A stretch of 64,000 nt of DNA from Marispirochaeta sp. (GTDB taxonomy: Bacteria > Spirochaetota > Spirochaetia > JC444 > Marispirochaetaceae): contig CAXXFF010000002.1 of assembly GCA_963676835.2 (NCBI GenBank), positions 1,664,001 to 1,728,000 on the forward strand, read 5' to 3'. The notes below the pieces were generated by a model. It did not search any database and had not been told where the DNA came from. It worked only from the letters and a program-made list of their open reading frames with translations. The translations under genes and the position numbers were made by a program. Below are positions 42,092 to 59,390 of this stretch, piece after piece (the stretch's first letter is position 1; the number at the start of each line of letters is the position of its first letter).

Positions 42092-42432
42092 GCAGCAGTA
42101 AAACCCCGGGAGATACACAGAAGTTTATTAAGGCGGTTGCAGACCATAAAGGCTGGATACTGAACCGTGACAGTGAGTATATCGAGTTTCTTGTTAACGG
42201 ACTGACGGTTAATCATGAACGTTACGGGTTTTACCAGTGTCCCTGCCGTGATTCCTACGGGGATAAGGTAAAGGATAAGGATATCCATTGTCCCTGTGAG
42301 TATGCCGCTGCGGATATACAGGAGTACGGCCAGTGTTTCTGCGGTCTTTTTCTTGATGCGGATTATTACTCAAGCCATGAGGATGTGGACGGAATCCCTG
42401 AGCGCCGTCCGGATGAGCTCTTTCCGGACTAA
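42088..42432 (+). CDS. Ferredoxin:thioredoxin reductase catalytic-subunit family
   Basis: CPCR, CPC and CFCGLF motifs. Confidence 0.88.
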   Translation: MSSSKTPGDTQKFIKAVADHKGWILNRDSEYIEFLVNGLTVNHERYGFYQCPCRDSYGDKVKDKDIHCPCEYAAADIQEYGQCFCGLFLDADYYSSHEDVDGIPERRPDELFPD

Positions 42433-43100
42433 CCGTTTTCGTTGATCAGTTCTATGGTTCCCCGGGAAAGGTTCTTGCGCAGGATTCCTTCATAGAAAAG
42501 ATATCTGCCGTCTCCTGAGCGGAGGAGGTAGAGCCCCTTCCAGAACTTGGCAAGCCAGTTGTTTATGCTTATTTCAACTTCCACGGCTTTTTCCCGTATT
42601 CCGTGAACTGTTATTGTTTTCTCTTCTTTACGAACCGCCCGTAAGGAGCTGAGTTTAAGATTCTGGGGCTGGATGAACCAGAAGGAGCGTTCTGTCTCTT
42701 CCCGGGTAACAAACTCTTCCATACCGAAAGGAAAAATCTGGTGCCAGGGCGAATCATCCTTTATCTGATACTCTTCTGTTTTTGTCCGGCGGCCCTTTTC
42801 CTGTATAAGACTAATCCTGTTTCCGTCTCTTGAGGCTTCTATGTAGAGGTCTTCAGCGTAATTCTGAAAGTACCAGCTTTGAGTATCACCTTCTGCATCC
42901 ACCACAATATGTTCCACACTCAGTACTGTTTCATCCAGGGTCTTTGTGAGGGTGTACTCCTTACGGCCATTGGCTTCGTTAATGGAAAGGGTTAGATCCG
43001 TGCAGTCTCCGTCAAGATTCTCATGGTAGAGAAGGTTGTCCCCGTATAGCAGCGTTCCAAGTGATATAAAAATGAGCAGGATTAAGGAAATCTTAGGCAT
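42429..43100 (-). CDS. Exported hypothetical protein
   Basis: Signal peptide MPKISLILLIF...; start set by the adjacent promoter (ORF track gives 43124). Confidence 0.65.
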   Translation of the reverse strand: MPKISLILLIFISLGTLLYGDNLLYHENLDGDCTDLTLSINEANGRKEYTLTKTLDETVLSVEHIVVDAEGDTQSWYFQNYAEDLYIEASRDGNRISLIQEKGRRTKTEEYQIKDDSPWHQIFPFGMEEFVTREETERSFWFIQPQNLKLSSLRAVRKEEKTITVHGIREKAVEVEISINNWLAKFWKGLYLLRSGDGRYLFYEGILRKNLSRGTIELINENG

Positions 43101-43106
43101 AGGCGT

Positions 43107-43135
43107 ATAGTAAAAGAGGTCCATATAAGTGTCAA
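43107..43135 (-). promoter_or_regulatory. Sigma70 promoter, leaderless geometry
   Basis: TTGACA-N17-TACTAT-N6-ATG. Confidence 0.7.
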
Positions 43136-43194: not shown

Positions 43195-43890
43195 TCATCG
43201 TTCAAGCTTGAAGGTAAAGTCCTTGATGATTTTTATCGCTTTACCGGGAGGCTCGAAGCTCCAGGATGAGATTACCGTGTCGATAACCGTGCGGTCCAGG
43301 ATGGGATATCCGGAAGAGCGCTGAACCTCCACTGCGGTAATGGACCCGTCTTCCGCAATGGAGATAAGGGCCCGGACGGTGCCTTCGTAGCCGAAGCGCC
43401 TGGCAGCATCCGGATATTGGGGTACATCAAGCACCCGGCCCCGGGTAAGGCCCTGCCACGTGATTGGTGCTGCTGCGGGTGACGCTTCGGATGTGCTGTT
43501 GTTCCCTGCGGATGCCTGCATTGTATCTGTTGATTCTGCTGCCGGAGCTTCTGCTGCAACTTTATTCTGTAGAGAAGCATTTTCCGTCAGAGACTGCTGT
43601 TCTGGTTCCGGGTTCTCGGGTTGTGCTGTCTCTGCCGGGGGAGGCTCCGATACAGGCCTTTTTTCTCTCATCGGCTGCTCCGCCTGTTTCGGAACTGCAG
43701 GTGCAGATACCTCCGGCGGCAGTACTCTGAGTTTTATTTCAGGGAACCGTGGTACTTCTATGGCGTTCTGAGGTGACTGCAGCTGTACCAGGATATAAAG
43801 AGTGATGCCTGCTCCATGGAGGAGCAGGGAGAGCGTCCATGCGGTAAGCGAGGTTCTATTCGACAACAAGGTACGGAGTTTGTGGACCAT
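43195..43890 (-). CDS. tonB: Energy transducer TonB
   Basis: SLLLH TM, Pro/Ala-rich linker, and YPDAARRFGYEGTV...SSGYPILD...WSFEP. Confidence 0.9.
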   Translation of the reverse strand: MVHKLRTLLSNRTSLTAWTLSLLLHGAGITLYILVQLQSPQNAIEVPRFPEIKLRVLPPEVSAPAVPKQAEQPMREKRPVSEPPPAETAQPENPEPEQQSLTENASLQNKVAAEAPAAESTDTMQASAGNNSTSEASPAAAPITWQGLTRGRVLDVPQYPDAARRFGYEGTVRALISIAEDGSITAVEVQRSSGYPILDRTVIDTVISSWSFEPPGKAIKIIKDFTFKLER

Positions 43891-44953
43891 CTGATGCGGA
43901 TAAGTCTACCTGACTGTAGCTGTTTTGTGTATCCAGGAGCATTATGGAATCGCCGCCGAAGTTGGCTACCACTAAAAGCCCTGTACTACTGTCATAAACT
44001 GCACCGGCATAAAGGTCCGTCTGGGGGTTCGAGAGAGATTTCAGATGATGGTCTGCAGGCAGGGACGGTGTTGCCGCATCGTAATAGTCCAGGCCGTAGG
44101 TTCCGGTAAGGTAGACAAAGCCTGTGTCAGAGTTATATGCGCCGGTGTTGTATGCAGGTGAACCGCCCACTGCAAGTCTTGTAATTTCGGATATGGAAGC
44201 CGGAGAAGCCGGAGTGGAAATATCCAGAACCAGGATTTCACCATCATCATCGGACTGGCCGCCGCTGAGATAAACATGCAGCTCGTCCGCAGAAGGGAAT
44301 CCCAGGCATGTCTGGGGGTTGCTTCCTGTACCGGTAGCGTAGGAACCAATATAGCTGTAGGGGGAGACTGCGCTGAAAACGGAAACTGACCCATCGCCGA
44401 TGGTACTGCCGGTATTCGCGCTATTACAGATATAGAGATAATCGCCGACTACGGTTCCGTCCTGGGGCCGGTTAAGACTGAAGGCATCATCCTTGAGTGT
44501 CGCAGTAAGCTCCAGGGTTGCGAGGTTTATAACGGAAATTGAATTGTCCACATAGTTCGGCACAAATGCGGTTGTCGGTTCTGATGCGGAACCGGTAATA
44601 ATGGAGTAGGGGTTTTTCCCTGCACCCAAGTAAATGTTATCGGTGTTTTCAAAGGTTGATTCATTAACAACCTGTATAGTGTTGTCTGTGCTGCAGACAA
44701 TAAAGAGCTGGTCGTTGTAGAACAGCATATCATTGGGAACTGCCCCGGTAAGGAAGACGTTGTTGTAAAGGGTTTGTGTATCCGGATGCAGTACTGAGAC
44801 TGTTTCCGCCAGATTGTTGAGAATAAATATTTCGCGGGATTTATCTTCAAAGCTTCTGCTTCCGTATTCAGTCTCGGGGGTGCAGCTTTGAATAAGCGGA
44901 AAGATGATCAGTAGAAGAAGGCTGAGAACAATAAAAGGATTCTTAAAACGCAT
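43856..44953 (-). CDS. YncE-like beta-propeller lipoprotein (BtuG-like position)
   Basis: Lipobox LIQS-C; repeats such as TGAVPNDM, LGAGKNPY, TGTGSNPQ and VGGSP. Confidence 0.7.
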   Translation of the reverse strand: MRFKNPFIVLSLLLLIIFPLIQSCTPETEYGSRSFEDKSREIFILNNLAETVSVLHPDTQTLYNNVFLTGAVPNDMLFYNDQLFIVCSTDNTIQVVNESTFENTDNIYLGAGKNPYSIITGSASEPTTAFVPNYVDNSISVINLATLELTATLKDDAFSLNRPQDGTVVGDYLYICNSANTGSTIGDGSVSVFSAVSPYSYIGSYATGTGSNPQTCLGFPSADELHVYLSGGQSDDDGEILVLDISTPASPASISEITRLAVGGSPAYNTGAYNSDTGFVYLTGTYGLDYYDAATPSLPADHHLKSLSNPQTDLYAGAVYDSSTGLLVVANFGGDSIMLLDTQNSYSQVDLSASDGPQTPYLVVE

Positions 44954-47057
44954 AACGGAGCTCCATGCTGAGTTCTATTCCGGGAACCGGATACTCCCGT
45001 ATATCCACATAGGCGATATTGAAGAGGTTTGTGCCGCTTAACACGAAATCGAGGTTGTCCCTAACCGCAATTGTTGCCGAGGCATCGGTAATAAAACAGG
45101 GATCGTACCATTTGGTGTTGGCAGCGGTTATGTAGCGGAGGCCTATGTAGCGGCCTTCCAGCCGCAGGGAATGCCCTTTCGTTGTTGTCAGGGTTGCGGT
45201 TGAGTTGGCTGTCCATACCGGTTTTCGGGGGATTATCTTGCCGTAGGTGGCGGTGCCTTCGGTACGGTCTTCTGCGTGGAGCCAGGTGCCGTTGGCGGTG
45301 AGTTCAAGGTAGGAATCAATCGCGGGCAGATCCAAAAGGCTGCGTACTTCGGACTCTATGCCCCAGAAGCGGCTGCTGCCGATATTGATGGGCCGCCATT
45401 TGCCGTTGGGGCCGGGGTTCCACTGAATAAGGTTGGTAACTTGACGGTAAAACCCGGCGGCTTCGATCTTTAAAAAAGGCAGGGGCTGCATCAGCACGCC
45501 GCCGTCTGCATACCAGGACTCTTCCGGTTTCAGATCGGGATTGCCCGTGGCAAAGGAGGTGGATGGCCAGAAGAGGTCGTCGAAGGAGGGGGCACGGTAG
45601 GCGGTTCCTCCGCTTGCTTTCAGGGTATATTTCTCGTCCCTGTCCAGAGGGGACAGGATTCCCATTTTCCAGGTTGCCTGAGTCCCTGAGGAGGATTCTG
45701 CTGTTGTATAGCCGTCGATAGCCCAGCTGTCGACTCTGACTGCGGGAAAGAGGGCCAGCCTGCACACATCTGAATCTGCAAAAGGAAAGAACCGCAGCTC
45801 TCCCCGGCTGAAGCCTGCGTTACGGATCCGGGTAACGCCGGAGTCGGAGAACTCGCTGCCCCCGGTATCGGTAAAGGAGGTGGAGTCCAGGGTATCCAGG
45901 CGAAAGCTGTATCCGCTTAAAAGGGATGCGGCCCAGCGTGTAAAGGAGAACTGCTGTTCGTAGCGGCTTTCTCCTTCAAAGGCCAGGTTCTCGTGCCGGT
46001 CGTCTATGGGGCCGAGATAAAAGTCCGGGTCTTCGTATTCCCGCACCTGCCGGGTAAAGCTGAGAGTCCCGGTGATATCTCCCCAGCTGTTGAGCCAGCT
46101 TGTTTCCACTGATCCGGTTTCCCGTTCGTCCGCCATGCGGGCGGTAACCGAGGGAAACTCCACGGTGCCGGGAACGCCTTTGTCGTCGAAATAGACGGAG
46201 GAATCAACTGCGATGTTCAGGTTCTCCAGAGGGGAAACATGCATAGAGGCTGCTGCACCGCCCTGGAGGACATCGGCGTTCTCTCGTTCCAGGGTGCCGA
46301 AGTTCTCATCCTCAAAGCTGTAGTTGCCGTCACTGGTTAAGCCGTGGATGGATAGGCTGCCTCCGAGGGTTTCATCCTGGTTACTGCTGGAAAGAGAAAC
46401 GGACCCGAAAGCGGTGTTCTGGGATGCGTAACCTCCGCGGGCACTGCCGGAGAAAATATCCGGTTCCGGGGATTTTGTTATCACGTTGATAACGCCCCCC
46501 ACGGCATTTTCGCCGTAAACAGCAGAATCCCCGCCGCGGTAGATTTCGATGCGTTCGATGATATCGGGATTGATGGTGGAGAGGTCCGCGCCGCCTCCCT
46601 GGGCGGTGTTGATGCGTTTGCCGTTAAGGAGAACCAGTACCTGTTCCGCTGAAGATCCACGAATAGAGACTAATGCGGATGAACCGGTGCCGCCGTAGCG
46701 GGTAAGGGATACGCCCAGTGCCGGTTCCAGTACCTCCGTCAGGGTCTTCGGGGCTGAGGCTGCAATTTCCTCTGCGGTTATTACCGTCATCTGCCCGGGC
46801 AGGGAACGGGGATCGGGAGCGTCGATGCGGGCTTTGATGATTATTTCCTGGGGCTGTGACGAATCTTCTTCTTCATCGTTTGCTGAAGGGCTCGTCTCAA
46901 GTGTTTCCGTATCGTCAATGATTATAAAGGCTTCTTCCCCGTCGTCGACGATAATGGTTTCCTGGGCGTAGACGGTGCCGGGGACTATAAAAATAGAGAG
47001 AGTAAGAAGTGTAGAAAAAGCCCGGCAGAATAATGTCATTCTTAAATTAATTTCCAA
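44943..47057 (-). CDS. btuB: TonB-dependent receptor, cobalamin (BtuB-like)
   Basis: Plug motifs SIRGSSAEQVLVLLNG and IERIEIYRG..SAVYGENAVGGVINVIT; GNPDLKPE; C-terminal F; downstream of a cobalamin riboswitch. Confidence 0.8.
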   Translation of the reverse strand: MEINLRMTLFCRAFSTLLTLSIFIVPGTVYAQETIIVDDGEEAFIIIDDTETLETSPSANDEEEDSSQPQEIIIKARIDAPDPRSLPGQMTVITAEEIAASAPKTLTEVLEPALGVSLTRYGGTGSSALVSIRGSSAEQVLVLLNGKRINTAQGGGADLSTINPDIIERIEIYRGGDSAVYGENAVGGVINVITKSPEPDIFSGSARGGYASQNTAFGSVSLSSSNQDETLGGSLSIHGLTSDGNYSFEDENFGTLERENADVLQGGAAASMHVSPLENLNIAVDSSVYFDDKGVPGTVEFPSVTARMADERETGSVETSWLNSWGDITGTLSFTRQVREYEDPDFYLGPIDDRHENLAFEGESRYEQQFSFTRWAASLLSGYSFRLDTLDSTSFTDTGGSEFSDSGVTRIRNAGFSRGELRFFPFADSDVCRLALFPAVRVDSWAIDGYTTAESSSGTQATWKMGILSPLDRDEKYTLKASGGTAYRAPSFDDLFWPSTSFATGNPDLKPEESWYADGGVLMQPLPFLKIEAAGFYRQVTNLIQWNPGPNGKWRPINIGSSRFWGIESEVRSLLDLPAIDSYLELTANGTWLHAEDRTEGTATYGKIIPRKPVWTANSTATLTTTKGHSLRLEGRYIGLRYITAANTKWYDPCFITDASATIAVRDNLDFVLSGTNLFNIAYVDIREYPVPGIELSMELRYAF

Positions 47058-47961
47058 TCATGCTGAGATCAACAGCACCGCTGATTTCAGGAGATACTTC
47101 GTTGAGCATTCCTGCAATGAGGAATATTCCGCTCTGGATTTTAATAAAACGGATAGAATCAAGGACTACCGGATTCCCTGAGGAATCAACTGCATCATCA
47201 ATATCAAAACGGTTTGCGCTCCGGTAGGAGGATCCGAAGGGGAGTGCGGCATCCAGATCGGTTCCGCTGTAATTCTCTGCATAGCCTTCGGTAAACAGGC
47301 TGTCATAGTCTACCCAGATGTCATCAGCGTTAAGATACTTGCTGTCCGGCAGTTTTACACCGTTAAGGGTTATTTCGGTGGCACTGCCGTAGCCGTCCCA
47401 CCACCATCCGGCGGATACACTGCTTTCGGGGTATCCGGGGACAAGCTCCACTCCTGTATTGCCCTGGTTGTCTGTCCAGGTGATGTTGGAACTGTCATAG
47501 GCGGGTTGTGAATAGGTAACCTGGTAATCCTGTATGTAGCCTGTTTGGCCGGTTTCGCTGCCCGCAAGTTCGTACCACGGTTCTTCCGGGTCGGGATATC
47601 CGTTGCTGTTGGTATCCTGTTTTACGAAGACAGCAGCCGGTTCATTTCCGGTTCCTGGTTGTGTATAGACAGCAAAATCATACCCAGTGACATTGCTTAT
47701 ATCGTGATCGAAGCCGGCTTCTATAAAACCACCCCAACCGCCGAGCATTACATAGGACGAAGATGTGCCGATGAACTTTGCCATCTGTTCTTCTTTTGTT
47801 CCTATTGTTGAAGCATGCTGTCCTGGACCGTAAGTGTAGTCGTAGACGGTGCTTATGTAGGGAGAATCACCAGAGCTGGAAGAGCTTGCATTTTCGCAGG
47901 AACTTATAACGAGGGGGACGAGAAGAAATAACAGCGGGATGGAAAATGTAAATCTTCGCAT
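47047..47961 (-). CDS. Surface lipoprotein resembling Bacteroidota B12-locus cell-surface proteins
   Basis: Lipobox VISS-C; YTYGPGQH, LGGWGGFIEAGFDHDI.N..GYDF, EP..VFVKQD.N.NG.PD..WYELAGSE and FDIDDAVD..G..V.L..IRFIK motifs. Confidence 0.65.
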   Translation of the reverse strand: MRRFTFSIPLLFLLVPLVISSCENASSSSSGDSPYISTVYDYTYGPGQHASTIGTKEEQMAKFIGTSSSYVMLGGWGGFIEAGFDHDISNVTGYDFAVYTQPGTGNEPAAVFVKQDTNSNGYPDPEEPWYELAGSETGQTGYIQDYQVTYSQPAYDSSNITWTDNQGNTGVELVPGYPESSVSAGWWWDGYGSATEITLNGVKLPDSKYLNADDIWVDYDSLFTEGYAENYSGTDLDAALPFGSSYRSANRFDIDDAVDSSGNPVVLDSIRFIKIQSGIFLIAGMLNEVSPEISGAVDLSMIGN

Positions 47962-48029
47962 AAAAATACCTTTTAAAGCAGATATCCCGACCACCTGCCA
48001 CGGGTACGGGATACCATACTTTTGGAGAG

Positions 48030-49076
48030 TTATTGCCGTTCCGCTCCGTTGGAGCTGTAATCGAAGTAACCGTCTGCATAGGTTACGCTGCTTTCTGCCT
48101 CAGATGCTGTATCAAAAACAGTATTAGGCCAGGTCCCTGCATCAGCCGGGGTTGCATCTTTATATCCCTGGGTAAAATCCATGGTTAGACTGTCGGTTGC
48201 ATTCTGTACCCAGCGAAAAACCTGGTATTTACCTACTTCTCCTGTACCAGTACTATCGACTTCGGTGAACTGGATTACCGCATATCCGGGATCATTGGTG
48301 GAAGATGACTGTCCTGAAAAAGTTGTTTCTGATGCATTGAGTCCGCTATTGGAATAGCTGACAATATCAGCTTTGAAGACTGTTGCGGCACCTGAACCGT
48401 AGTCTGTGGAGTATTCAATTGTGGAATCGGTAATAACCCAGTACTCAGTGCCGTAAGTTCCTGCCAGTTCCCAGGATCCTTCTGCCCGGATAATTTCTTC
48501 AGCACCTTCAGAAGCTGCCCCGAAAAAGCCGTTGGTGTTTGTTACGTTCTGTATAGCTTCTGCAGCTGTGTCATACACTGTGTTTGGCCAGGTCCCCGCA
48601 TCATCCGGGGTGGCATCTTTGTAGCCCTGGGTGAAGTCCTTGTCGGCTGAATCAGACTGGTTCTCCGCCCAGCGAAAAATTTGGTATTTACCTACTTCCC
48701 CGTCTCCTGTCGTAGCAACTTCAGTAAACTGAATTACTGCATAGCCCAGTCCAGTTGTTGAAGAGCTAACAGACGATGTAATTGATGTATCGCCGGCGTT
48801 AAGCCCGGTGTTTGAAAAACTAATAATGTCTGCTTTGTAATTAGTGCTGAACCCTGATCCCCAATCGGATAGATACTCGATGGTGGATTCGGTTATTACC
48901 CATTTCTCAGTTCCATATGCCCCTGTTAATTCCCATATACCTTCGGCTGCTATGGTTGCTGTTGTTCCGCCACCGCTTCCGGCTCCGGTATCCTGACATC
49001 CGCTCAAGAGCGAGACAAAGGCCACCATGGCCACTAACACTGAGATTTTTAAAAACTTTCCTGTAAGGTTTTTCAT
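48030..49076 (-). CDS. Lipoprotein with two tandem ~150-aa domains of unknown family
   Basis: Lipobox LLSG-C27; aa 44-195 and aa 198-348 share GYAVIQFTEV, GEVGKYQ.FRW and DFTQGYKDATP.DAGTWPNTV. Confidence 0.85.
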   Translation of the reverse strand: MKNLTGKFLKISVLVAMVAFVSLLSGCQDTGAGSGGGTTATIAAEGIWELTGAYGTEKWVITESTIEYLSDWGSGFSTNYKADIISFSNTGLNAGDTSITSSVSSSTTGLGYAVIQFTEVATTGDGEVGKYQIFRWAENQSDSADKDFTQGYKDATPDDAGTWPNTVYDTAAEAIQNVTNTNGFFGAASEGAEEIIRAEGSWELAGTYGTEYWVITDSTIEYSTDYGSGAATVFKADIVSYSNSGLNASETTFSGQSSSTNDPGYAVIQFTEVDSTGTGEVGKYQVFRWVQNATDSLTMDFTQGYKDATPADAGTWPNTVFDTASEAESSVTYADGYFDYSSNGAERQ

Positions 49077-49165
49077 GTTTCTTCCCCTTGGGGCAGAAGA
49101 AGCGGGGCTGCGGCGAGCTTGAATTTAACGGCAGGCTGTTCTATTCAGAAGGCATCGCCCATTCC

Positions 49166-49334
49166 GACTTTTTCCGCGAAGTCTAAAAATGGTTTTGTTT
49201 CCGTATCAACGTCTCCTGGCTGACGGATATCATCCGCCGCGCCTTCCCGGGGGTACCCAGTGGCATATGCGGCGGCTTTTCCGATCACAGTGACGGGATC
49301 GCGAAGGATTTGCACCTTCTTCCGTTAAATACAG
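49166..49334 (-). ncRNA. Cobalamin riboswitch
   Basis: Minus strand reads AACGGAAGAAGGTGCAAATCCTTCGCGATCCCGTCACTGTGA...GCCACTGGG...GGGAAGGC...AGCCAGGAGAC. Closing helix CTGTATTTAACG/CGTTGATACGG; downstream hairpin GACTT-CGCGGAAA-AAGTC. Confidence 0.9.
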
Positions 49335-49340
49335 TAAGCA

Positions 49341-49369
49341 ATAGTATCATGGTGAAAGACGGGGAGCAA
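49341..49369 (-). promoter_or_regulatory. Sigma70 promoter of the B12 operon
   Basis: TTGCTC-N17-TACTAT with an extended TG; predicted start near the riboswitch 5' end. Confidence 0.6.
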
Positions 49370-49431
49370 TATGATCACTGGTATGGTAGGTGTAAGTGGG
49401 TAAGAAAATACCATGGATAGTATAATAGTTG

Positions 49432-49468
49432 TACCCGGATGCATCTGTTACCGGTATGCATCCGGGTA
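49432..49468. terminator. 13-bp stem hairpin after the BspA-like gene
   Basis: TACCCGGATGCAT-N11-ATGCATCCGGGTA; no clear U-tract. Confidence 0.5.
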
Positions 49469-49489
49469 TGGGCTAATTTGTGTTTCTGC

Positions 49490-50566
49490 TCAGTTCCAAC
49501 TGGGATAGGGGTGGAATGCTTCCCTCAGGAGTGACCCAGAACTGAATGCTGTATGATCGATAGGGCGTTCGACTGTTCCTGTTTCCGGAACATGTTCGCT
49601 CCAGGAGGAGATATCCTGGTCGAAGGCCTCTGTGCCGTAGAACATCCAGCTCATATCTGTAGCACTGTCGGGGCTCCAACCGCCGATATCCTGACTGAAC
49701 TGTTCATTCTGAAAAAACATCTGTTCAAAATCCTCAACCTTAGAAACATCCCAGCTGCCGATATCATGATCGAAGAGGGTATCAGAGAACATGCAGCGCA
49801 TGGTGGTAACTGCCCCGGTTTTCCAGTTGGAGAGATCCTGATCAAAGGCTGATGCCCCGGCAAACATGGCTTCCATGGAGGTTACCTTCTGTACATCCCA
49901 TGCTGAGATATCTCCATTAAAGGTTGATGCTCCGTAGAACATGAAGTACATGTTTTCCACATTACCTACATTCCAGGTTGAGAGATTCTGGTTGAACCCG
50001 CTTACCCCGTCAAACATGAAACCCATGGTGGTGACATTGCTGACGTCCCAGCCGGATATGTCCTGATTGAAGCTGGTATTGCCGACGCAGAGCTGATGCA
50101 TGTTCGTTATTTCCGAGGTGTCCACCCGGGTGACGTCTTCGTCGTTGTTGATCATGGCTTTCAGCTGGTCGAAGTTGACGGTCATTTTCACAACAACGGT
50201 GTAGTCTGAAGTGTCACCGCTTTCAGCGGTGACGGTGTAGATAACATCCCCGGAGAAATTGTTTTCGGTGATGCCGGATTCCTGGGGTGTGAGGCCTACG
50301 GCTGCGCTTTCTCCTGCCAGAGTGAAGGATGCAATAAGGGCTGTATAGTCTGTGCCGTAGGGAACTCTGAGCAGGATGGTTTCGTCGGTGATTGTTCCAA
50401 TTACATCGCCAGACAGTTCCGATGGGTTGTCGGCAGCGGTAAAAGTGAAGGCTGTTATTGCGGATGAGCTTGATGGACCGGGAGTCGCTCCGGTACCTGC
50501 CTCCTCGCAGCTGGTCACCAGCAATAGTGTTGCTAAAACTGATAGTAGAGATATGATTTTTTTCAT
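49490..50566 (-). CDS. BspA/DUF285-type repeat surface lipoprotein with N-terminal Ig/cadherin-like domain
   Basis: Lipobox LVTS-C; YTVTAESG..DYTVVV; about six 25-aa repeats of the type FNQDISGWDVSNVTTMGFMF. Confidence 0.85.
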   Translation of the reverse strand: MKKIISLLSVLATLLLVTSCEEAGTGATPGPSSSSAITAFTFTAADNPSELSGDVIGTITDETILLRVPYGTDYTALIASFTLAGESAAVGLTPQESGITENNFSGDVIYTVTAESGDTSDYTVVVKMTVNFDQLKAMINNDEDVTRVDTSEITNMHQLCVGNTSFNQDISGWDVSNVTTMGFMFDGVSGFNQNLSTWNVGNVENMYFMFYGASTFNGDISAWDVQKVTSMEAMFAGASAFDQDLSNWKTGAVTTMRCMFSDTLFDHDIGSWDVSKVEDFEQMFFQNEQFSQDIGGWSPDSATDMSWMFYGTEAFDQDISSWSEHVPETGTVERPIDHTAFSSGSLLREAFHPYPSWN

Positions 50567-58406: not shown

Positions 58407-59390
58407 ATGAAAAAGATTATTAACCTTTCCATGGCCGTGCTTGCGGCTCTAATTTTCCTTGCCGGTTGTGCCGGCGGCGGTACTTCATCTTCCGGTTCCG
58501 GCAGTGGAATTTCTCTTTCCAACCCTGTAACAACAGCAGATTTTTCTTCTACCGATTATTCCGGTGGAGCTATCGCCCTGCCTGAGGATGCGGAAGACTC
58601 CCTCGAGCTTGCCGGATATCTGCTTGAACCGGTTGTGCTGAACAGCTTTACCTATCTTGCAGGGTTGTATGCTACCAGTACTCTGGATGACTGGTTGAAC
58701 GCAAACTTCGCTTTGACAACACCGACTGAAGATCTTGAAGCACTGTTTTCAGCTCTTATGAACAAACACGCATTTCCGAGCACGATTCTTGGTGTTGAAG
58801 CCAACGATGCTCCTTTCGGCACATTTGCTCAGCTTGGCGGAGAAGTCACCGGTACTATCGATACAGTTTTTTATGACGATGAAGAAACCAAGGCAGCCTC
58901 GGAAGTGTTTTCCCTGAGCCTGGATAATATTGATTACGATATTATTGCACCCCTTGCGTCAACCACCACCAGCGTTGAAGAGGGCCGATTGACCTTTTCT
59001 CTCAATCTCAACGCAACACTGGATTACACCTATGATGATTCGGGTGTTTTAACATCCGCTGATTGTGAGTACAGCATTTCTCTCCGGGGAATGCTTGCGT
59101 TAAGCGGCAGCTATAATCTTGACAATGATCTTAAGACAACCGGAGACCAGATGCAGGGACATGTTCTTGCTGATTTTGCCTTTGATGACAGCGACTCAAT
59201 TATCCTGACAGCTGCTATGCTGGTTGATCACTCTCTTATTGGAGCTGTTATCGGACCAGATAATTTCTCTTTCTCAATTCAGGCATACGGTGATCCTGCC
59301 GGTGATGCGGTTGTAGATGATAGCCTTTCACTTGAAGACCTGTTTTCCCTTATTGAAGATATGATTCCTACTGTACCGGCTGTTCCCTGA
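58407..59390 (+). CDS. Acidic lipoprotein of unknown function
   Basis: Lipobox FLAG-C, Gly/Ser tether and AAGGAG RBS. Confidence 0.75.
   Translation: MKKIINLSMAVLAALIFLAGCAGGGTSSSGSGSGISLSNPVTTADFSSTDYSGGAIALPEDAEDSLELAGYLLEPVVLNSFTYLAGLYATSTLDDWLNANFALTTPTEDLEALFSALMNKHAFPSTILGVEANDAPFGTFAQLGGEVTGTIDTVFYDDEETKAASEVFSLSLDNIDYDIIAPLASTTTSVEEGRLTFSLNLNATLDYTYDDSGVLTSADCEYSISLRGMLALSGSYNLDNDLKTTGDQMQGHVLADFAFDDSDSIILTAAMLVDHSLIGAVIGPDNFSFSIQAYGDPAGDAVVDDSLSLEDLFSLIEDMIPTVPAVP

Follow-up and report, generated by a model that had tools for sequence, protein, structure and literature searches.

What is the role of a lipoprotein that a spirochaete encodes first behind a cobalamin riboswitch? The question arises in a 64,000-nucleotide stretch of Marispirochaeta sp. 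DNA (contig CAXXFF010000002.1, positions 1,664,001 to 1,728,000; hereafter the window), where an open reading frame of 348 residues (48030-49076, minus strand) begins 134 nucleotides (nt) downstream of an RF00174 element, the sole Rfam match in the window. The initial annotation, made from the letters of the DNA, had placed this gene first behind a B12 riboswitch, as the Rfam match confirms, and had proposed that its product is a bivalent corrinoid-binding surface protein of a new family. Lipoprotein-assisted B12 capture has been described for Bacteroidota, by proteins with propeller, jelly-roll and BtuH folds (PMC13616437, PMC12751083; these two and PMC7521688 are cited throughout for individual sections). 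Here we report that relatives of the window protein are linked to B12 riboswitches across the spirochaete phylum and that their domain is predicted to fold as a calycin barrel; these two results are the main finding, and the tandem repeat is incidental. The family almost certainly has a role in B12 uptake and, by analogy with characterised accessory lipoproteins, probably binds corrinoids directly.

Linkage of the family to riboswitches and receptors

Homologue searches yielded 18 and 6 close proteins and 122 clusters at 50% identity, query included. A distant subfamily of 59 proteins aligns with the first in profile comparison (probability 99.8%), and its profile matches 62 of 401 genomes of the phylum. 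All named sources of family members are spirochaetes, among them Spirochaeta africana with a single-domain homologue (WP_014454840.1); the genome-level search beyond the phylum consisted of one pattern scan.

Linkage was assessed by comparing the positions of family genes and riboswitches in each genome, a match being RF00174 or a member of its clan on the same strand and at most 700 nt upstream. By this measure, 92 of 104 other genomes carry a riboswitch match upstream of a family gene, 65 of them at or above the Rfam cut-off. The first set comprised 55 genomes with near-full-length family matches, 51 of the 81 other genomes matched in one search and four from another; left out were 30 of the 81 with weak matches, mainly to the signal peptide, one of which (G265) re-entered later through a full-length match. 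An RF00174 match was present in 48 of the 55 and a finer scan added three clan matches, giving 51, of which 45 are above the cut-off. As to the four misses, the contig ends 77 nt upstream in one, the gene is second or third behind the riboswitch in two, and one has no riboswitch match. The second set, all 49 further genomes matched by the distant-subfamily profile, gave a match in 41: 22 of 24 mixed genomes (20 at or above the cut-off) and 19 of 25 AT-rich genomes of one genus, all of these below it (20-30 bits). Among individually fetched loci, which partly overlap the genome sets, the riboswitch lies upstream in 12 of 13 and 10 of 11, and both misses lack upstream DNA. With 0-7 riboswitch matches in each of these genomes of 2-6 Mb, a given gene is estimated to fall behind one by chance in about 1 of 1000 cases. 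More than 20 families show the linkage, although related genomes are not independent.

Receptor genes are regular neighbours too. In a survey of 71 distinct chosen loci, 54 had 5 kb of downstream flank, and 46 of these encode a TonB-dependent receptor, 22 a BtuH-like protein (profiles miss some divergent BtuH-like genes) and 21 a BtuG-like protein; a receptor with neither of the latter occurs in 25. Among family-bearing loci, the family accompanies spirochaete btuB more constantly than BtuH or BtuG do. The initial annotation had suggested looking for homologues behind cobalamin riboswitches or near btuB, and they occur in both places.

Some loci are arranged differently. At L027 and L028 (genomes G386 and G308), the operon consists of the family gene, a BtuH-like gene, TonB and BtuFCD without a receptor, which lies elsewhere in both genomes. 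At L029 and L175 (G253 and G343), no receptor lies near the family gene, whose own riboswitch match is weak (24-29 bits); both genomes hold many TonB-dependent receptors. Back-to-back cobalamin riboswitches with divergent units, one starting with the family, are found at L013:3712-4170, G606:C1:92633-93110 and G662:C6:90203-90611.

As the sole recognised accessory beside the receptor in 25 loci, often abutting it, the family might bind no B12 and, regulated together with the operon, serve the receptor as a structural partner (a lid, plug or assembly factor) or act as a helper in the manner of BtuL. BtuK2 and BtuL, which did not bind B12 (PMC12751083), provide precedents, and no universally conserved polar surface patch has been demonstrated in the family. 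The tandem, triple, stalked and arrayed forms described below, however, fit poorly with a fixed one-to-one subunit, and the copies in G253 and G343, away from any receptor and with a riboswitch match of their own, also speak against this explanation, which we consider unlikely.

Predicted fold and domain architecture

The initial annotation had recognised no family, and database searches agree: the query gave no match in Pfam, one in NCBIfam at E 0.043 and none better than E 0.2 among PDB sequences, where matches to CEACAM at that level or worse were dismissed as fortuitous. Alignments of 107 and 95 members and 50 further proteins likewise matched no Pfam, NCBIfam or PDB family, so that no confident match to a known non-B12 family emerged; specifically, neither the 107 members nor the 50 further proteins matched a Pfam lipocalin or HmuY model. 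In the Atlas, members bear automatic 'lipocalin-like' names only, with no common Pfam family, and the sole cultured member with an accession is annotated as hypothetical or as a lipoprotein. We found no description of the family in the open-access literature, while regulon tables in supplements or subscription journals could mention its genes; 'spiroch' is absent from the main text of PMC8941943 and PMC10404256, and the sections of PMC3953431 and bioRxiv 10.1101/2025.01.03.631275 that note a spirochaete BtuB do not mention the family. It is an unnamed family and a structural variant within the accessory lipoproteins of B12 uptake.

The domain is predicted to fold as an eight-stranded lipocalin-like (calycin) barrel. 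A model of its 151 residues (predicted local distance difference test score 97) contains eight strands and one helix and shows the eight-stranded antiparallel barrel that defines this fold. A GxW motif on the first strand marks lipocalin-like proteins, and in the family G3 is 98% and W5 95% conserved. Foldseek run on the model returned no match at E 0.001; the best matches of the model in the fold searches were calycin barrels, and chains of BtuJ, BtuH and BtuG were not among the 50 best matches of either wide search, although such lists of top matches do not exclude a family. The nearest fold is Treponema pallidum Tp0751 (5JK2), with 8% identity and about 96 of 151 residues aligned. Compared with Tp0751 and the bacterial lipocalin-like lipoproteins BACOVA_00364 and YxeF, the window family has long insertions between strands 4 and 5 and between strands 7 and 8. 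Tp0751 binds heme, a tetrapyrrole, with a dissociation constant of 11.7 µM, and no B12 link is reported for it in the sections of PMC7521688 cited here.

Heme binders and a zinc-binding ZinT-like domain also appear in the fold list. B12 riboswitches also control cobalt transporters, and the family could conceivably be regulated by B12 yet bind a different cargo, for instance cobalt ion or heme. We regard this as highly improbable, the neighbours being BtuH-, BtuB- and BtuFCD-like. In addition, His is absent from the window protein, as is Cys outside the lipobox, and across both subfamily alignments no column is more than 42% His, Met or Cys; metal ligation by these residues was rejected on these grounds.

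In the window protein, the lipobox and a Gly/Thr tether are followed by two copies of the domain, each of about 150 residues, starting at residues 44 and 198 (positions 48947 and 48485), just as the initial annotation had read them; the four near-identical blocks that it quoted are all found in both. At least 90% of 107 aligned family rows share the lipobox Cys. Domains A and B are identical at 100 of 151 aligned residues (66%; score 523 versus a maximum of 50.5 among 500 shuffles), and third codon positions match at just 35 of 96 identical residues. Silent sites are saturated between A and B, which indicates that the duplication is old and that selection maintains both copies.

The tandem copies of the window protein are real. 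Most family members, however, are single-domain lipoproteins of 150-200 residues, and just 11 of 133 hold two or three domain copies; the earlier stress on bivalence was misplaced. On a quick tree, the tandem label changes 10 times, with at least six changes forced by well-supported branches; tandem duplication is secondary and recurrent, with several origins.

The window's A and B domains cluster with the A and B domains of P0002 (78% within type, 56-66% between), so the two lineages have been separate since before the split from that protein. This, and 25 fixed A/B differences shared with P0002, several of them in inferred open-end loops (26-37, 77-81 and 143-146), speak for the proposal that each copy has come to prefer its own cobamides, or that one favours cobinamide and the other complete cobamides. 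Against it, common descent alone would be expected to leave fixed differences when only two genomes are compared; of 27 columns conserved across the family, A and B agree in 23 and show Tyr/Phe swaps in the other four; and known capture proteins, BtuJ among them, accept various axial ligands (PMC13616437). Specialisation, which is compatible with the capture role favoured below, is possible and in our judgement improbable; beyond the shared differences it found no positive support. A gain in capacity explains the duplication more simply, and the second copy most likely gives the protein twice the capacity and reach.

Other architectures occur as well. In P0038 the family domain runs straight into a BtuH domain that shares 46% identity with the one in the window, and the absence of the BtuH signal peptide argues for a true fusion in this single record. 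Stalks precede the domain in some members, with Big_2 (immunoglobulin-like) repeats in 4 of 107 and cadherin-like ones in 2 of 107. In an AT-rich genus (26-29% GC; L158, L159, L165, L166 and L167), arrays of small lipoproteins lie ahead of a BtuB-like receptor and contain up to four recognised family paralogues plus at least two other unnamed lipoprotein types; several of the genes have their own weak riboswitch match, and copy number differs among genomes. The final residue is Gln in most single-domain members and in domain B, a free end that is absent in fused or first-position domains (alignments A1 and A6).

Candidate role in B12 capture

We keep the family as a candidate cobamide-binding one because of its riboswitch linkage, its BtuB neighbours and the lack of a match to a known non-B12 family. 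Acidic character, to which the initial annotation had also appealed, was dropped as evidence for corrinoid binding, since two control lipoproteins of the window are as acidic or more so: charge per residue is -0.104 in the window lipoprotein, -0.148 in the unrelated lipoprotein at 58407 and -0.113 in a DUF285 protein. That direct binding is rated probable draws on B. thetaiotaomicron, in which B12 was bound by 8 of the 10 accessory lipoproteins that btu operons encode (our own count, BtuF left out; PMC12751083), on the BtuH fusion, on the stalks and repeats and on the tetrapyrrole-binding nearest fold.

Our preferred reading, held with moderate confidence, is that of a surface capture protein whose barrel binds corrinoids at the cell surface and feeds BtuB; recurrent tandem duplication and paralogue arrays fit such a free capture module. 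When B12 is scarce, the riboswitch would permit expression of the operon, and the lipid-anchored protein would be displayed outside the outer membrane. Each barrel may then hold a corrinoid on its open-end loops, where aromatic residues would stack against it and hydrogen bonds would form, with no His coordinating the cobalt. Cargo would pass to BtuB via BtuH and the BtuG-like lid where these are present, and directly in operons that consist of the family gene and a receptor only; BtuFCD, encoded behind a second riboswitch of the genome, would complete import. The protein would work as a capture reservoir like Bacteroides BtuJ or BtuH without belonging to either.

Weighing against a surface location, lipocalin-fold lipoproteins such as TP0751 have been argued to be periplasmic small-molecule binders (PMC7521688), and the family might bind corrinoids in the periplasm, holding or shuttling them between BtuB and BtuF. 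In G308 and G386 its gene is indeed encoded with TonB and BtuFCD, the receptor being elsewhere, but the same operons already encode BtuF. Moreover, the co-encoded BtuH- and BtuG-like lipoproteins are surface-acting in Bacteroides (PMC13616437), one family member is fused to BtuH, and stalks and diversified arrays are, we infer, typical of surface proteins. We judge a periplasmic role quite unlikely and the surface the likelier location.

Surface capture would give the family counterparts among known systems. Like the window family, BtuJ1 and BtuJ2 of B. thetaiotaomicron (DUF4465, PF14717) are riboswitch-controlled small lipoproteins of a btuB operon, often duplicated and rich in Tyr, and BtuJ is a proposed extracellular B12 reservoir (PMC13616437). 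BtuJ is a jelly-roll with demonstrated B12 binding, whereas the window domain is a predicted eight-stranded barrel and a putative binder. PF14717 matched none of the 107 family members at E 0.01 and was found neither in the host genome nor in any of 401 genomes of the class; because of this absence, the window family may fill the BtuJ role in spirochaetes. BtuH1, BtuH2 and the BtuGH fusion (7BIZ, 8BLW) share with the family the operon, stalks and fusion to another module: BtuH2 has PKD stalks (PMC13616437), and both halves of BtuGH bind B12 (PMC12751083). BtuH differs in size and predicted fold, and its chains gave no sequence match with the query or the 107-row profile, compared with E 7e-30 for the next gene. 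The BtuG lid of the BtuB-BtuG complex is likewise a lipoprotein partner of BtuB, as the family appears to be in the 25 loci where it is the sole recognised accessory, but BtuG is a seven-bladed propeller rather than a domain of 151 residues and eight strands, and the operon has a separate propeller gene of its own.

A bolder version, which we advance tentatively and consider doubtful, is that the family is the first lipocalin-fold corrinoid binder and a phylum-wide answer to BtuJ and BtuG, that it alone captures B12 and loads BtuB in two-gene operons, and that tandem, stalked and arrayed copies sample different cobamides. If the family binds B12, a calycin barrel would join the corrinoid-binding folds, more than 100 hypothetical protein clusters would acquire a function, and spirochaetes from sediments to animal guts would compete for cobamides with a capture protein of their own. 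At 17 kDa, the single domain lends itself readily to binding and structural studies, and the two-gene operons are the simplest system for asking how a capture protein passes B12 to BtuB, a handover that a 2026 review calls the key question for BtuJ (PMC13616437).

Operon and genome context

In the window, the lipoprotein gene is followed by four same-strand genes that overlap or almost abut (Table 1), and the first two genes of the operon have a low GC content at third codon positions (0.43 and 0.48).

Table 1. Features of the riboswitch-controlled operon (window coordinates)
Feature	Position	Strand	Details
Cobalamin riboswitch aptamer core	49211..49323	-	RF00174, model positions 47-167, 80.2 bits, E 3.9e-18 (cut-off 31.5)
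Possible hairpin covering the ribosome-binding site (translational control; weak)	49081..49102	-	-9 kcal/mol, z 0.46, no better than shuffles
Lipoprotein signal peptide	48996..49076	-	Ends in lipobox LSGC, residues 24-27 (Cys27); by eye from sequence
Gly/Thr-rich tether	48948..48995	-	Residues 28-43, read from sequence
Domain A	48486..48947	-	Residues 44-197, 154 residues; lipocalin-like barrel predicted by homology to domain B
Domain B and stop codon	48030..48485	-	Residues 198-348, 151 residues; predicted eight-stranded lipocalin-like barrel
BtuH-like lipoprotein, B12-binding domain only	47047..47994	-	Likely start ATG 47961; 7BIZ E 6.8e-30, 8BLW_B E 2.4e-26
BtuB-like TonB-dependent receptor	44943..47057	-	Best model TIGR01779, below its cut-off
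YncE/BtuG-like beta-propeller lipoprotein (weak family match)	43856..44953	-	PF21783 E 1.7e-4, TIGR03866 E 5.6e-9
TonB	43195..43890	-	PF03544 E 2.5e-16

Aligned to 7BIZ, the BtuH-like protein retains Gln333, Glu406, Ser582 and Glu584 but lacks His476 (residue numbers of PMC13616437, with the offset inferred). Very divergent types of BtuH-like lipoprotein occupy the second-gene slot at L006:8425-9189, L027:9543-10628, L117:5609-6568 and L031:1023-1736; these proteins have no Pfam match and their profile no PDB match, but several could be connected with the BtuH-like protein of the window by an iterated profile. When structures are ranked by a profile built from 38 related receptors, B. thetaiotaomicron BtuB1 comes first, then other BtuB structures and, not far below them, the colicin I receptor. 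The propeller lipoprotein gave no PDB sequence match to BtuG.

In the leader, the anti-Shine-Dalgarno bases of the possible hairpin pair alternatively with the upstream leader; translational control through this hairpin is unproven, its stability not exceeding that of shuffles. Promoter and terminator scans showed no excess of sites (7 observed versus 8.0 in shuffles, and 6 versus 7.7).

A second cobalamin riboswitch, at G000:C4:445882-446060, precedes btuF-, btuC- and btuD-like genes. The genome, 97% complete, has seven matches to B12-binding domains, among them corrinoid proteins and a MetH-like protein of 1130 residues (labelled by eye), and contains an adenosyltransferase; searches for CbiC and CobS gave no match in it. 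Judged from its gene content, the host most likely imports complete cobamides. A plasmid search gave no match.

All five genomes of the same genus (G402-G406) carry a riboswitch-receptor-TonB unit on the opposite strand, beside an orthologue of the gene at 42429-43124. Because riboswitch, receptor and TonB are present there without a gene for the lipocalin-like lipoprotein, the family is not essential for a btuB-type unit. The receptor of that unit is only distantly related to the window receptor (25-26% identity over two long matches), and the contrast between the plain unit and the lipoprotein-rich cassette of the window (43195-50566) suggests cassette exchange at one site. Just upstream of the window riboswitch lies a gene for a DUF285/PARCEL-repeat lipoprotein (49490-50566, minus strand), which was not seen at the site in the five genomes and may have come together with the cassette. 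The gene at 42429-43124 (minus strand) encodes a hypothetical protein of 231 residues without a Pfam match, and it adjoins the B12 cassette in all five same-genus genomes.
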